A stretch of 64,000 bases of DNA. Source: a virus. Shown here piece after piece: positions 10,572 through 57,852 of this stretch (its first letter is position 1; each line of letters opens with the position of its first letter). The translations under genes and the position numbers were made by a program. The stretch covers positions 12,424-76,423 of the IMG/VR virus record IMGVR_UViG_3300025652_000049; one strand, 5' to 3'. The notes beneath the pieces are model-generated. The model was not told the DNA's origin. It did not search any database and worked only from the letters and a program-made list of their open reading frames with translations.

Positions 10572-13500
10572 TTACGTTAATCTTCTATGAACGGCGCCCG
10601 TGGAACTATTTATATAGCCGAAGCCTACCGCTACCCCGCCAGTATTTGCGGCCGCGTCGTCGGCGTACGAACCTAGGCCGGTAAGGTCTAGTTTTCCCAT
10701 TTTCACAATACCGGGAAATTCTGCTTTTGCGCCGTTGGCGTCCGAAGTTGTCATTATTAGGACTTCGTCTTCGGAGGAGGGAAGGTCTTTTCTGTTTTGT
10801 ATAGTAAAAATAGTTTTCGCCGTTCTACCTGAGTATGACCCCCTATTTCTAAACCGTATAATTTTTTCGTTTGTGTCTACGCCAGATAAGGCTTGAAGCA
10901 AAAAGTCGTGTCCGTTATTTTCGTCTTCGTGTCTTAAAACCGCTATAACTACTAATTTGCTTTCTGCTTTGCTGTAAAAGCCGCCCGTACTTTGGAACCT
11001 ATCCGAAGTAAACCCCAAATAGGAATGTACCCCAGCCGCTGCAACTAGCAAAGCGTTAACTTTTGCCCCGTTATTATAAATAGCGGTATATAGTTCGGAA
11101 TAGTAGCCCGCCTGTAGCCTGTTAGACATTGCGTATATCTCATATTGAGTTATCGGGACGTTTGCGGACACGCTGTCGCCCATTGTTACCCCCTTAATAG
11201 TTAAGCGGTCGCCCCTTGAATTGTTATCGTTGTCAAAGGCGTTAAAACCTATCTCTAGTTCTCCAAGTATCCCAAAATAATCGACTAAAAGCTTCGCTAG
11301 TACTTTATTGTTTGGGGCGTCGAAAGTGAAACCATCAAAAAGAATTTCATCACCAATGAATTGTGAAATTCCACTTCCATCTTTTACATTTAATTGGGTT
11401 CCTTTGTAATTGTAAAGGTATTTTGTGACAACCATAGTTGCCTTTTTTTCGTTTATCATTTCCGCATTTGTGGAAAATTCACCATATAAACTGACAATAA
11501 TATTGTTAATGTCAACAATAATACTTGACATCAAAGGACTGTTTGGTGTTTTTGCCTGATATGAACAATGACCAACAGTTGCCAAAATAACGCCTGTGTA
11601 ATTGATTGTAGTTCCACCACCACCATCATAAATCAGAAAACCGCTTGCATTGTCTTGATAAATATATGTATTTGTCAGTACATTGTAATAGTTTGAGTTT
11701 CCTCTTAAAACTCCTTTGACTGCACCGTAAACCTTTATCACACAATCAATCAACTTGACTTGATTTGAAAAAACCCAACTTCCTGATGTATTTATGAAAG
11801 TGGCGTTTCCTTCAAAATTCCAATTTGTTCCGTTAAATTCAACAATTCCGTCAATAATAGAATCTTTAAATTTTACAAAACAATTAGTACTTGAACTCCT
11901 GACTAGTAAACTTTTAGCACCAACAGTGACATCTCCTAATTCAATTTCAATATTATTTGCTATATAAGTAATTTGAAATGAATTTGCAGCTTCAATCTTT
12001 CCTATTTTTATTTTTACACCTAATCCCGTTGTGTCTGATTCAATAAGTTTTGATGCAGTTGTTGAAATTATTGTTCCAAAGGTTAAATTGCAAATTCTTA
12101 ATACATCAAAAGGTCTGTAAAGTGCAGTGCCTTCAAGATACAATGTTTCAACATTCATGTCAAGTGCTTTTGGAAGTTCAAGTCTTGTGTTTGAACCAAT
12201 AAACATTGTTTTGACGCTGAAAGTCCAATCAGAACGAACCATGTAAATTTCTGCAACATTTGGTGTTGACATTCTTAAAGTTCCATTTGGAAGGTCAAAC
12301 ATCATGAAGGTGTTTGATTGAACAATTGGTTCATATAAGTCACCAACAATTGGACTTCCATCAAATGAAATTGTTGCAGTTTCCTTTGTGAAAAATCTGA
12401 TGTTTTTATTTGCAGGAATAATTGCGTTTATTGGATATGTTCCACTTGTTAAAAGTTCGACTGTCCAAAATTTTGTTCCTGTTGGAATTGCTGAAATTGC
12501 TGAATCAATTGTTTCATATGGAAAAGTCACTGAATTTGGTTCTGCAGTTGCATCATTTCCATTTGCTTCATCAACAAATAATGTGTTTGCAAGGCTCACA
12601 CTTGTCACAAAAGGATTTATACCATCTTCACCAACATTGTTTAATGTAGACGTTTTGTCTCGAACATCTTTGTCGGCTCCTGCTGTTGACAAATCAATAT
12701 ATTTAATATTTACAGTGTCCATAACAGGACTTATAATTTTAAGCCTTAGATTTTCTGTAAGAGTAATGGGGGTTAAGGTATCCTTTAAAACCCCATCCCA
12801 CAATACTGTCATCAATCCACCTACATACTTAAAAGTAAAAGTAGTATTGAAAAAATCTGCATAATCTAAAGCAGCAAAATCCGATTGTACACCATTAACG
12901 TAATAAACACTTAAAACAGAGGTCGGATTTGGACGAAATTCAGCCCCATAGACTTGACTTCCAGCACCATTAATTAACTGTAGGTCTGAAATGTAATCGC
13001 CATTTCCTGAAGCACCAGCATCTCCAAGTGGAGTCTCCTGCATTTTCCATTCAAAAAGCCAATCTTTAGTATAGTCAAGTTCTTGTGTCCAAATTCCTAT
13101 TCCATTTTGTTGAAAAACAGTAATTTTTGCTGCCCCTTCTTGCGAAACATCTAACCTTGTAAGGTCAATCCATTCACCACTAGAAGGGATATATAATGTT
13201 CCGCTTACAATTTGAATCTTATCTACGTAAGTAATAGCACCTGTTCCATTATTGTTATCCAAAGTAAGGTCATAACTACCTTCAGTAGCTATAGTTGTCA
13301 AATTAACCCTAAATGTATTATCGTCTATAAATAAAGTACTTGTAATAGTATTTCCCTCAATAACGACAGTCATATTTTCGGTAAAATAAGAACCTTTTAA
13401 AATGAAGTACGTGGGATTTGATGGTAAAGTACTAACTTGCCTAACCTCTTCTAAATAAGGAGCTTGTAAACTTGTTGTATCTATAAAAGGATTTATACCG

Positions 13501-54160: not shown

Positions 54161-55624
54161 ATGAGTAATTCCATACCACCTCCACCACCACCAGGCGGAG
54201 GTAAAGACCCACCTAAAAGAAAAGAGTTCATTCCTAAACCTAGAGCGCCAAGCATAACTGATACTGGTCATATTCCACCTCAAGCAGTTGATATGGAAAG
54301 AGTGGTATTGGGTGCGTTAATGGTAGACACTAGAGCTTGTGCTGAAGTTGTTAAACTTTTAGACGAGAAAGTGTTTTACCATGAACCTCATCGATTAATA
54401 TATACTGCAATCAAATCCTTGTATGATACAGGGCTTGGTGTAGATATACTAACAGTGTCTCATGAGCTGACTCGTAGAGGAACTTTAATAGCTTCTGGAA
54501 GCGAGTACTATTTGATTGAATTAACTCAATTGATTGGTAGTGCTGCACACGTTGAATATCATGCAAGGATTGTCTTACAGAAGTTTGTACTTCGTGAGTT
54601 AATTATAATGTCTAGAGAAACAATACATAAATCTCTACATAACGATCCTGATATATTCAAATTAACCGAAGGAATTGAAAATACCATTGCATACATAAAT
54701 ACAGTGGCTATCAATCCTGATGGGATTCAACAGGCTCTTATTACACCAGAACAAGAACTTACTGAAAAACTACTAATGCAACGTCGAGGGGAAACTCCGG
54801 GCATAGCTTTAGGTGTTTCAGAGTTTGATGATTGGTGTGGAGGTTGGCAGAAACGAGAACTTATTACTATAGGAGCAAGACCAGGAATGGGTAAAACCAC
54901 TATTGGAATAGCTGCTGCGGTAACAGCTTCCATTTCTAAAGGTCATGACACAGCATTCTTTTCATTAGAAATGTCTAAAATAGATGTGATGAATAGAGTT
55001 GCTGCTAGACTAACAGGAATTGAATTTAGTAAGATAAAAGGAGGTAAGTTAACTGACGATGAATTTAAGCAAGTCTTAGCGACTTATAAGTTCATTGATG
55101 AAAGTAAGCTGCATATCCACGACACTATGGAACATAAGAACTTCCACGAGCGTATAATTAAAAAGATACGTGAGTTGGTTTCTAATGGTACCAAGTTAGT
55201 CTTTATTGACTACGTTCAATTAATGAAACTTGTTAGGGCAACAACAGATCGGACAGGTGATTTGTCAAAAATTACCAGAGAACTGAAAGGTCTTGCTAAT
55301 GAATTGAATATTCCTATTATCATCTTCGCCCAGCTAAATAGAAGTTTGGACGGTAGAGGCAATGGTGATGGTACTACAATACCATTCCTAAAAGATTTAA
55401 AACAATCTGGCTCTATTGAAGAGGATAGCGATACGGTAATATTCATTGTTAGACCAGCATACTATAAACAGCAGAAATCTCTTGGGATTACATTGCCTAC
55501 ACATGTATTAGGTGAAACGCAGTTTATTGTAGCTAAAGGCCGAAACATTGGTGTTCGAAGTTTCAAGACTTTCGTAGACTTTCTTAAATTTAATTTCTGT
55601 TCTTATTCTGATATGGATTTTTAA
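54161..55624 (+). CDS. dnaB: Replicative DNA helicase DnaB
   Basis: PPQAVDMERVVLG, GARPGMGKT, FFSLEM, IDYVQLM, AQLNR and DLKQSGSIEEDSD. Confidence 0.95.
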   Translation: MSNSIPPPPPPGGGKDPPKRKEFIPKPRAPSITDTGHIPPQAVDMERVVLGALMVDTRACAEVVKLLDEKVFYHEPHRLIYTAIKSLYDTGLGVDILTVSHELTRRGTLIASGSEYYLIELTQLIGSAAHVEYHARIVLQKFVLRELIIMSRETIHKSLHNDPDIFKLTEGIENTIAYINTVAINPDGIQQALITPEQELTEKLLMQRRGETPGIALGVSEFDDWCGGWQKRELITIGARPGMGKTTIGIAAAVTASISKGHDTAFFSLEMSKIDVMNRVAARLTGIEFSKIKGGKLTDDEFKQVLATYKFIDESKLHIHDTMEHKNFHERIIKKIRELVSNGTKLVFIDYVQLMKLVRATTDRTGDLSKITRELKGLANELNIPIIIFAQLNRSLDGRGNGDGTTIPFLKDLKQSGSIEEDSDTVIFIVRPAYYKQQKSLGITLPTHVLGETQFIVAKGRNIGVRSFKTFVDFLKFNFCSYSDMDF

Positions 55625-55665: not shown

Positions 55666-55953
55666 ATGACAAAAAATGAAATTGGAGATTTAGTCTCAAA
55701 AGAAACAGGAATCGATAAAGATACTGTTCGAAAGGTGTTTAATGGCATTATTGCTGTTATTCAAAAACAATTATTATTTGGGATTGACTGCAAGATACAT
55801 GGGCTTGTTAATTTTATGAAAATAAGAAAAGAAGCTTATTCTTGCAGAAACCCCCAAACTGGAAAACAAATTGACTTACCGGCTAGGTATAACGTCAAGG
55901 TTGTTGTTTCCAAAAACTTCCAAAAACTTATTAAAGAGCAAAAAGTATATTAA
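55666..55953 (+). CDS. HU/IHF-family DNA-binding protein
   Basis: MTKNEI...CRNPQTGKQIDLPAR. Confidence 0.9.
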   Translation: MTKNEIGDLVSKETGIDKDTVRKVFNGIIAVIQKQLLFGIDCKIHGLVNFMKIRKEAYSCRNPQTGKQIDLPARYNVKVVVSKNFQKLIKEQKVY

Positions 55954-56237: not shown

Positions 56238-57278
56238 ATGAGCACAAACACAAGTTTTACAGCACCGAAAGGTAGTTCAAACAAATTAGATACTGATAAC
56301 ATTCCAGCTGGAATGCATCTATGTACTCTATATGGACTAGCTGATATCGGTACACAAGATGGTGGAAACTATGGACCAAAACACAAAGTTAATTTAGCGT
56401 TTGAGTTTCCTACTCAAATGAGACAGTTTTACGTAGACGACCCAATGAAGCCAAGTTGCATTTTTACAGATGAAACGTTTTCAATGGCTTCTAAATCGAA
56501 TCTGCGTAAGAGATACGTAGAGCCAATGATTTCAAGACAGCTAACAGATACGGAGGCTGATAACTATGACTTTGGTACATTGCTTGGAAAAAGCTTTATT
56601 GCTACCATTACAATCTCTTCTGATGGGCAATGGTCTAATATTGCTTCTTTAGTTCCTTTAGATGCAACCAATATGCAATTTGCTGGATTAACAACTCCAG
56701 AAGTTGCTGGGATAAATGACAAGTATTTCTTTCATTTATCTAATGGATTTGAATCTGAGAATTTCAAAAATCTCCCTAAGTTTATTAGAGAGAAAATACA
56801 ATCTTCTCATGAAGGTCAAGCTCATAGAGCTTCTGGTGGTGTATTTGCTGAGCCACCTAAGAGAGATTTTCAGGCAGAAAACGCATCACCTACTTTAGTA
56901 TTAACAGCGAAAGCAACAAATACGCTTGCAGAGTATAAAGCAGGTAATTGGACTGATGCTTTATTAATACAAGAAGGATTGGCAGTAATGTCTGGTGCGG
57001 TTGCACCTCCAACATCTACTCCAGCAGCACCACCTCCTGTTGCTCCACCTGTTGCGCCTCCTGTTGCTCCACCTGTTTCTCCTCCTGTTGCAGCAGCACC
57101 AATAGCACCACCTGTATCAGCACCTCCTGTTGCTCCTACACCTCAACTTCATATACACGTTATGCCTGATGGTAGAAAATGTATTATGAATGATACAACT
57201 GCAAATATAGCAGCTTGGATTGCAGAGCAATGGACACCTGAGACATTAGTGTCAAATGGATATGCTGTTTTTCAGTAA
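56238..57278 (+). CDS. Putative single-stranded DNA-binding protein with Pro/Ala-rich linker
   Basis: IPAGMHLCTLYGLADIGTQ...FEFP...KSNLRK phage SSB-like N-domain, duplicated WT..xLI..GxA mini-domains and (PPVA)n. Confidence 0.65.
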   Translation: MSTNTSFTAPKGSSNKLDTDNIPAGMHLCTLYGLADIGTQDGGNYGPKHKVNLAFEFPTQMRQFYVDDPMKPSCIFTDETFSMASKSNLRKRYVEPMISRQLTDTEADNYDFGTLLGKSFIATITISSDGQWSNIASLVPLDATNMQFAGLTTPEVAGINDKYFFHLSNGFESENFKNLPKFIREKIQSSHEGQAHRASGGVFAEPPKRDFQAENASPTLVLTAKATNTLAEYKAGNWTDALLIQEGLAVMSGAVAPPTSTPAAPPPVAPPVAPPVAPPVSPPVAAAPIAPPVSAPPVAPTPQLHIHVMPDGRKCIMNDTTANIAAWIAEQWTPETLVSNGYAVFQ

Positions 57279-57484
57279 GAACTAGTGGGGCTATACCTCG
57301 CCCGCCTGTTCTAATTCCAAAACCTCTTGTGAAGGTGGTGGCTTTGCCGCCGCCACCTCCACTATTGAGGAAAGAGATATCTGAAGATGATATCCCAGAG
57401 GATGAGAAGACAGTATTCGATATGACTACTGAAGAATTAAATAACCTGCCCCCTAATGGGCCTCATCAAGATCCACCTTTTTAA
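57275..57484 (+). CDS. -1 frame extension of the SSB gene ending in an acidic tail ...QDPPF (candidate frameshift product)
   Basis: Open frame 57242-57484 with no early ATG. Its stop overlaps the next ATG (TAATG). Confidence 0.6.
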   Translation, partial: VRTSGAIPRPPVLIPKPLVKVVALPPPPPLLRKEISEDDIPEDEKTVFDMTTEELNNLPPNGPHQDPPF

Positions 57485-57852
57485 TGCATTTATTTATAGC
57501 AAAATCTGATAAGGGAATAATAGTACCTGTTGAAGAAAACAAATTGATTTTTTGGAATAAACTGCTTGGCGATTATGAAAAGCAAGACATGTGTTTTAAA
57601 GTTACTATTGAGTTAGTTGGTAAAAATATTAACCAGGCTCAACAAAAACTTTATAATGCATTTATTATTAGGGCTTCGGAACATTATGGAAACTCCTTTT
57701 ATGAAATGGAAACAATGCTTCATATCCTGAAACCTATGGATATAAATAAGAGAGCTATTTCTGTTGAGAGATGGAGTACAACGCAGTTGAATGCTTTTAT
57801 AGACAAAGCTAATTCATTGTTATTAGAAGTAGATTCAACCTTTAAATTTTAA
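57484..57852 (+). CDS. NinB/Orf-like recombination protein (tentative)
   Basis: INQAQQKLYNAFII...STTQLNAFID pattern. Confidence 0.5.
   Translation: MHLFIAKSDKGIIVPVEENKLIFWNKLLGDYEKQDMCFKVTIELVGKNINQAQQKLYNAFIIRASEHYGNSFYEMETMLHILKPMDINKRAISVERWSTTQLNAFIDKANSLLLEVDSTFKF

Follow-up and report, generated by a model that had tools for sequence, protein, structure and literature searches.

A putative programmed -1 frameshift that may append the docking tip to a probable phage single-stranded DNA-binding protein

The classic cellular example of programmed frameshifting in a replication gene is dnaX of Escherichia coli, where a -1 shift at A_AAA_AAG, together with a 3' stem-loop, yields the tau and gamma proteins. 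In tailed phages the well-documented programmed frameshifts are found mostly in tail-chaperone and capsid genes; in gene 10 of phage T7, a -1 shift at a U-rich site shortly before the stop codon originates 10B, a minor, C-terminally extended form of 10A. Bacterial single-stranded DNA-binding proteins (SSB), for their part, end in an acidic tip, ...DDDIPF in E. coli and ...DDDLPF in Bacillus subtilis. Here we analyze a window of 64,000 nucleotides (nt) of DNA from a marine phage, positions 12,424 to 76,423 of the IMG/VR virus record IMGVR_UViG_3300025652_000049 (76.4 kb, approximately 94% complete, with a genome GC content of 35%), in which the gene of an SSB-like protein stops before any such tip and the tip is encoded in the -1 frame. 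We consider it quite probable that a programmed -1 ribosomal frameshift equips some of the molecules with this docking tip. A full-text literature search, which included a comprehensive 2016 review of frameshifting and the PRFect paper, did not turn up any SSB gene reported to undergo frameshifting.

The locus resembles dnaX in that one gene would give rise to two versions of a replication protein through a -1 slip assisted by a downstream hairpin; as in dnaX, the two forms would differ in a C-terminal region for docking replisome partners, so that the shift would set the stoichiometry of interaction sites. Unlike dnaX, where frameshifting truncates the protein and gamma lacks the binding domains, the shift in the phage gene would extend it, the default product being the one devoid of the tip. 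Moreover, four of the five lineages compared have a tetranucleotide (U_UUU or A_AAG) as their site, there is no evident upstream Shine-Dalgarno-like element, and the protein families are unrelated. T7 gene 10 also differs from the SSB-like gene, as it encodes a capsid protein, uses a heptameric site and adds an extension lacking a docking motif.

The bacterial SSB tip and the acidic tail that T7 gp2.5 carries have counterparts in the family of the phage protein, where a flexible Pro-rich linker follows an OB-type domain and leads to acidic residues with a final [LIVM]-P-F. In the window this arrangement exists only in the -1 frame and with the weaker ending DPPF. Further differences are that the phage OB-like domain matches neither PF00436 nor PF10991 and that two additional small domains stand before the tail.

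A parallel for part of the lineages is a -1 shift on A_AAG near the zero-frame stop, which leads to a C-terminal extension in B. subtilis cdd (A_CGA_AAG) and in IS1222 (G_CGA_AAG) (PMC5009743). The A_AAG_UAG junctions of two lineages, L007 and L029, match this type. However, the cdd shift has been described as incidental, whereas the extension of the phage SSB-like protein carries a conserved functional motif and its site is paired with a hairpin.

Two-frame layout and its recurrence among relatives

The zero-frame open reading frame (ORF) of the SSB-like gene ends in GCT GTT TTT CAG TAA, encoding ...GYAVFQ with no acidic tail, just as the original prediction had read it. That prediction was equally right about the -1 frame, which opens at 57242, immediately after a TGA (57239-57241), and runs to a TAA at 57482-57484 that overlaps the ATG of the following gene (TAATG, at 57484). 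As it had also stated, there is no ATG near the start of this frame: the first one lies at 57422, and the other potential initiation codons of the tail are GTG or TTG codons at 57329, 57335, 57338 and 57344. The frame reads DISVKWICCFSVRTSGAIPRPP...PPPPPLLRKEISEDDIPEDEK...GPHQDPPF and, in a longer rendering, ...CCFSVRTSGAIPRPP...PPPPPLLRKEISEDDIPEDEKTVFDMTTEELNNLPPNGPHQDPPF. From the junction onwards, the tail comprises FSVRTSG..., a Pro-rich linker, the acidic block EISEDDIPEDEK, conserved TVFD and GPH motifs and the DPPF tip (Table 1). The acidic ...DPPF tail that had been announced is thus present, although its tip is less acidic than the DDLPF of the relatives.

Table 1. Features of the SSB-like gene and its surroundings, in window coordinates
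Feature	Position	Strand	Remarks
Zero-frame ORF	56238..57278	+	346 aa; tail-less form of the SSB-like protein
N-terminal OB-like domain	about 56238-56855	+	AlphaFold model and structural matches (likely)
First 'WT' domain	about 56892-56993	+	AlphaFold model
Pro/Ala-rich linker	about 56998-57143	+	AlphaFold model: disordered
Second 'WT' domain	57144-57275	+	AlphaFold model
Proposed -1 slip site U_UUU	57269..57272	+	Inside the T5 run 57268-57272
Tail coding region, -1 frame	57269..57484	+	71 aa plus stop
Zero-frame stop TAA	57276..57278	+	One codon past the slip codon
Hairpin 1, candidate stimulator	57278..57312	+	-14.2 kcal/mol; 5 nt past the slip site
Hairpin 2, GGUGGUGGC/GCCGCCACC core	57329..57362	+	-23.9 kcal/mol
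C-terminal tip HQDPPF	57464..57481	+	Counterpart of the family DDLPF tip
Next gene	57484..57852	+	122 aa; ATG overlaps the stop of the -1 tail (TAATG)

At the DNA level we compared five lineages: the window group and L017, L020, L007 and L029, whose main proteins are 47, 44, 45 and 38% identical to that of the window, respectively. Two types of junction were found. In type A (T_TTT_CAG_TAR), to which the window group belongs, the zero-frame ORF of both L017 and L020 ends in ...GYATFQ at T_TTT_CAG_TAG; their -1 tails are FSVGTPIVQQKVVPPPPVIEEAETVFDGGPHREGYGDDDLPF, ending in ...GDDDLPF, for L017, and ...TIFDGGPHTNDSDDCPF, ending in ...SDDCPF, for L020. In type B (A_AAG_TAG), L007 stops after ...GYAVPVK and its -1 tail reads KVEGVGESTQQ...DEPDEEHDDLPF, ending in ...HDDLPF, and L029 stops after ...GHATVNPK with the tail KVVGVAPSS...AQDSDDDLPF. 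The frame break that had been seen in the window is therefore kept by homologues, behind the same site in two of them and behind A_AAG_UAG in the other two. Upstream, the -1 frame extends without a stop past the end of the zero-frame ORF in each of the five lineages; the overlap, from the upstream stop of the -1 frame to the zero-frame stop, spans only 6-14 codons and contains no slippery site other than this one. The same downstream gene (MH.FI.K...) follows all five tails, with the TAATG overlap in four of them, L020 being the exception. The pattern is well beyond what chance would produce: besides the window group, four lineages at 38-47% identity show the two-frame arrangement together with a tip of the SSB type.

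Protein-level comparisons extend this picture. The nearest homologues, 60-61% identical to the window protein, also end in ...FQ and, judging by these ends, are not fused in frame to a tail. In alignment A4, F-Q are the last two residues in 13 of the 13 proteins with a type A stop, whereas the eight relatives with in-frame tails have WV, LV, WL, ME, IS, YV, YL and MI at these positions; in P0030, which ends in ...WENFQ, the FQ lies two residues further on. Five further proteins end in K, two of which were confirmed in DNA as A_AAG_UAG. Such invariant F-Q or K ends fit a constraint on the nucleotides (UUU-CAG-stop or AAG-stop) better than one on the protein.

The tail was found in frame in L030 (ending in ...GDGLAF), in P0019, 22, 23, 24, 27, 29, 34 and 41, and in the more distant L009-L011; relatives with the same domain order carry it after the second WT domain, and some of them have the GPH motif. 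Since more distant relatives carry it fused in frame, the tail belongs to the SSB-like protein. In-frame fusion in homologues, which had been named as a sign against a frameshift, is thus absent among the nearest homologues, although present in more distant ones, where it identifies the tail as the family's own.

The tails also appear to be constrained as proteins. Those of the window, L017, L020 and L007 have PPPP, T[VI]FD, GPH and D.PF in common when aligned. In L017 and L020 the residue is the same in 26 of 40 aligned codons, the nucleotide differences are distributed 9/9/17 over the three codon positions, and 10 codons differ only synonymously. The conserved motifs, the third-position excess and the synonymous-only codons point to selection on the encoded protein.

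Searches for additional cases gave little. When viral contigs were scanned for the patterns of the two junction types, no new family members emerged; the type B pattern was unspecific, with at least 117 matches, and none of the matches listed adjoins a family gene. A scan of genome contigs returned no relatives, GenBank phages gave three distant protein matches only and no DNA match, and a search with the tail alone retrieved only the window's own 51-aa ORF. A tree of 51 proteins had an unresolved backbone and therefore gave no count of how often tails moved into or out of frame.

Slip site, hairpins and the proposed shift

Tetranucleotides of the form Z_ZZN, including A_AAG, are established minimal -1 sites, the canonical form being X_XXY_YYZ (PMC5009743). 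The sites of the five lineages are U_UUU in the window, L017 and L020, A_AAG in L007 and C_CCA_AAG in L029, the last one being a canonical X_XXY_YYZ heptamer. In each of them the tRNA can re-pair after a one-base slip, as the definition of a -1 slippery site demands (PMC5009743), and both the site and the two-frame arrangement are conserved among diverged homologues. The window heptamer is indeed non-canonical, as had been pointed out, and is better described as a tetranucleotide U_UUU of the Z_ZZN type.

A hairpin begins 3-5 nt past the slip site in all five lineages. Stability was judged against 200 shuffles and against the 46-nt windows of this genome. Hairpin 1 of the window is predicted to be formed by AGAAC...GUUCU enclosing GGGC/GCCC; only 1 of 200 shuffles was as stable (z -2.5), and it falls in the top 1% of the genome's 46-nt windows. 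The corresponding hairpins have predicted energies of -10.2 kcal/mol in L017 (z -2.65), -19.5 kcal/mol in L020 (z -4.7), -13.6 kcal/mol in L007 (z -0.5) and -11.2 kcal/mol in L029 (z -0.9), so that in three of the five lineages (the window, L017 and L020) no more than 1 of 200 shuffles equals the hairpin in stability. Hairpin 2 is stronger than any of the shuffles (0/200 as stable, z -4.25) and lies in the top 0.02% of the genome's 46-nt windows. It is located 57 nt from the slip site, too far to act as a direct stimulator, but it may block internal initiation or slow the ribosomes. Three GTG codons (57329, 57335 and 57338) are buried in it, and the TTG at 57344 is in its loop. Of the two GC-rich hairpins originally predicted, the second folds as described, whereas the first adopts the pairing given above and not GTGGGG/CCTCGC.

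Hairpin 2 lies within the tail coding region, where Val/Ala codons (GGUGGUGGC) pair with Pro codons (GCCGCCACC), and smaller hairpins occupy the equivalent place in L017 and L020. A reading of the hairpins as transcription terminators was discarded, as no terminator-like site was found.

We propose that most ribosomes would read GUU UUU CAG and terminate at UAA, releasing the tail-less form, and that a minority would slip back one base on U_UUU. In these ribosomes the tRNA-Phe placed on the zero-frame UUU (57270-57272) would re-pair with the UUU at 57269-57271; in the type B lineages, tRNA-Lys would slip on A_AAG. With the slip codon in the A site, hairpin 1 would stand at the mRNA entrance, 5 nt away, and could aid the slip. 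The resulting product, ...GYAVF-SVRTSG...DPPF, would gain 70 residues comprising the Pro-rich linker, the acidic block and the tip. If it acts as the bacterial SSB tip and the gp2.5 tail of T7 do, the tip may dock replication or repair partners of the phage or of the host; alternatively, the tail may inhibit DNA binding by its own protein, as in those same proteins. The efficiency of frameshifting would then set the number of docking tips per SSB assembly on single-stranded DNA. The layout, its conservation and the membership of the tail in the family are direct observations and support the predicted -1 slip giving two SSB isoforms; the slip itself and its efficiency, like the binding of single-stranded DNA and the partners of the tip, are what we infer from the sequences.

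Several points weigh against this proposal. U_UUU does not conform to the canonical heptamer, and re-pairing is impossible for the P-site codon (GUU or ACU). In L007 and L029 the hairpins do not surpass shuffled sequences in stability, and the hairpin sequences, three poorly aligned ones of type A and two of type B, are too few for covariation. The DNA-level evidence covers only five lineages. The window tip, DPPF, is a weak version of DDLPF. The sister lineages L004, L005, L018 and L019 have no tail, their zero-frame stop being followed by TAGATG with the next gene (MHQFICK...) starting 3 nt after it, and L031 is tail-less as well, so the short form can suffice. Finally, the assignment as an SSB depends on a fold match of modest strength (Z 6.1) together with the tails and the gene context.

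Alternative explanations

The tail could be a separate small gene, producing from GTG 57329 or ATG 57422 a free peptide of 20-51 aa that would mimic the SSB tip and compete for, or recruit, tip-binding proteins. Gene callers do place a 51-aa GTG-start ORF in this region, and its stop is coupled to the next gene (TAATG). However, no ATG, GTG or TTG occurs in the L017 and L029 tails and only one late GTG in each of those of L007 and L020, the GTG codons of the window are buried in the -23.9 kcal/mol hairpin, the -1 frame is open back across the zero-frame stop in all five lineages, and the homologous tail is fused in frame in relatives. Because the L017 and L029 tails lack start codons and the hairpin encloses the GTGs of the window, independent initiation at a GTG or TTG, raised at the outset as an alternative, is judged unlikely, and we regard a separate gene as very unlikely.

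A different recoding event could join the two frames, either slippage of the RNA polymerase on the T5 or A3 run or bypassing by the ribosome, which would hop from the last sense codon over the stop and the hairpin. The window does have a T5 run, the stop followed by a hairpin resembles the take-off site of T4 gene 60, and L017 and L020 possess an in-frame downstream CAG that might serve as a landing codon. Yet the runs of the other lineages, T4 in L017 and L020 and A3 in L007 and L029, are far shorter than known transcriptional slippage sites, the tail of the window has no CAG landing codon, and a one-base slip on Z_ZZN accounts for all five lineages, making either event very improbable. Reassignment of the stop (TAG read as Gln, as in some crAss-like phages) was considered and discarded: the stop in the window is TAA, and read-through of the TAG in L017 would remain in the wrong frame and soon meet a TAA.

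It is also hardly probable that the tail is the decaying remnant of an ancestral frameshift mutation and that only the short protein is made. The existence of tail-less relatives that are presumably functional (L004/L005, L031) and the window tip, DPPF, which is degenerate relative to DDLPF, would agree with decay. In contrast, lineages at 38-47% main-protein identity retain unbroken tail ORFs in which motifs are conserved and the tips are perfect forms of the DDLPF type; changes in the tail follow a coding pattern, and the break always occurs on a slippery site followed by a hairpin, with F-Q invariant at the stop.

A sequencing or assembly error, namely a one-base indel in the T5 homopolymer where the break sits, had been named as the first thing to check and is excluded with next to no residual probability, because the junction is identical base for base in three other, independent assemblies (Ga0196887/UViG 3300022178, Ga0075467/UViG 3300006803 and a TARA scaffold) that come from distinguishable strains, with 7, 10 and 22 ORF substitutions relative to the window, respectively, and a 21-nt linker deletion in the TARA copy, besides the same frame break being present in homologues with different sequences.

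Protein family, genomic context and implications

The original description of the ORF as SSB-like finds no support in Pfam, where no match was obtained at E <= 1, but it agrees with other evidence. The ORF matches phrog_862, a PHROGs family of unknown function, weakly (E 5e-5, residues 18-129), and the relatives retrieved with the window profile match the same family at 1e-7 to 2e-21. The AlphaFold model of the 346-aa protein (pLDDT 77 overall and about 90 in the domains) consists of a beta-rich N-domain, two small beta-alpha-alpha-beta 'WT' domains and a disordered Pro/Ala linker. The best structural matches of the N-domain were binders of single-stranded DNA, with PrgE of plasmid pCF10 first (PDB 8s4s/8s4t; Z 6.1, rmsd 4.7-4.8 A over 115-116 residues), followed by baculovirus LEF-3 (Z 5.2), RPA (4.8) and then SSB, Rim1, PriB and Pf3 SSB. 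PrgE has an SSB-like OB fold but no WT domains, and its identity is only 9-12%; with all Z values under 8, below the level that proves kinship, the N-domain likely belongs to the OB fold class according to the model.

A profile of the N-terminal 206 residues retrieved 4,568 cluster representatives at E <= 0.001. Among the best 150 of them, 101 end in P-F in frame, 50 exactly in DDLPF, and 91 of the 101 have at least two acidic residues just before P-F. We take the DDLPF ending of the phrog_862 relatives to be a form of the bacterial SSB tip. A weak Atlas lead connected the protein with DUF669 (score 0.88, 10% of members), but the PF05037 (DUF669) profile matched neither the ORF nor the genome. 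PF00436, the bacterial-type SSB, had no match anywhere in the phage genome, and PF10991 (T7 gp2.5/Enc34 ORF6-like) had none in the ORF or the genome, a result that says little, as control genomes were also unmatched. A profile search of PDB sequences with the protein gave nothing meaningful, and no other recognizable SSB was found in the genome. Together, the OB-like matches of the N-domain, the SSB-type tails, the location in a replication module and the lack of PF00436, PF10991 and PF05037 matches in the genome suggest that the protein is probably the SSB of this phage and a member of an uncharacterized family.

The WT domain (about 35-45 aa, pLDDT 85-92, consensus ...Y..GWT[DE]..L[IV]..G.A.[WF]) corresponds to no Pfam family. 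It recurs in the otherwise unrelated SSB-like protein of L012 and looks like a mobile module of the C-terminal regions of phage SSBs. The Pro/Ala linker is built of PPVA-like repeat units and its length varies among strains, the TARA copy (L016) being the one that lacks 21 nt; most of the strain-to-strain substitutions are concentrated in it.

Directly upstream of the gene are a DnaB-type helicase (54161-55624) and an HU/IHF-type DNA-binding protein (55666-55953; PF00216, E 5e-18); with another P-loop helicase on the other side, these neighbors form the replication module. As the nearest named relatives of the DnaB protein are found in Cellulophaga and Riemerella phages, the sequence suggests a host within the Bacteroidota.

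Two other sets of loci deserve mention. L012:2386-3310 (IMGVR_UViG_3300022758_000114) encodes a different SSB-like protein of 296 aa, presumably gp2.5-like, which begins MAKVVEKFVTPVGRL... and contains 9-residue PA-rich repeats and one copy of the small domain ('GWTDQMMIEQGY'). Its ORF, whose neighbors on the two sides are a PD-(D/E)XK-like nuclease ORF and a polymerase-like one, ends in ...TGNGY (TGA TAG), and reading across this stop in the +1 frame gives ...TDSYWNWDDIPL; this may be another, independent example of an acidic tip encoded out of frame, in +1 instead of -1. L032-L042 (for example L032:2009-2860) are distant, short members of the family, of about 200 aa, that end in ...D[AS]PF; since a PD-(D/E)XK/Cas4-like nuclease ORF overlaps downstream, the two genes could form an SSB-exonuclease recombination pair.

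With regard to the family as a whole, a somewhat more tentative proposal, which we still favor, is that a clade within phrog_862 has placed its docking tip under recoding, by means of two interchangeable -1 sites (U_UUU_CAG_UAR and [C_CC]A_AAG_UAG) with hairpins that have persisted despite deep divergence; the phage could then set the proportion of protein with and without the tip, perhaps varying it with the translational state of the host. The two short site types would constitute compact natural signals for minimal Z_ZZN frameshifting, probably in Bacteroidota hosts with atypical translation signals. There is also a consequence for annotation, as gene callers truncate such proteins or call a spurious 51-aa ORF and the tip goes unseen, even though it is the main functional clue for a family of more than 4,500 sequence clusters.

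SSB tails auto-inhibit DNA binding and compete for partners, and for this reason the number of tips per assembly matters. If true, our proposal would add to the programmed frameshifts of replication genes a new class that mirrors dnaX, and a conserved frameshift that decides whether an SSB carries its docking tip would represent a new way to tune recruitment to the replisome and to repair.

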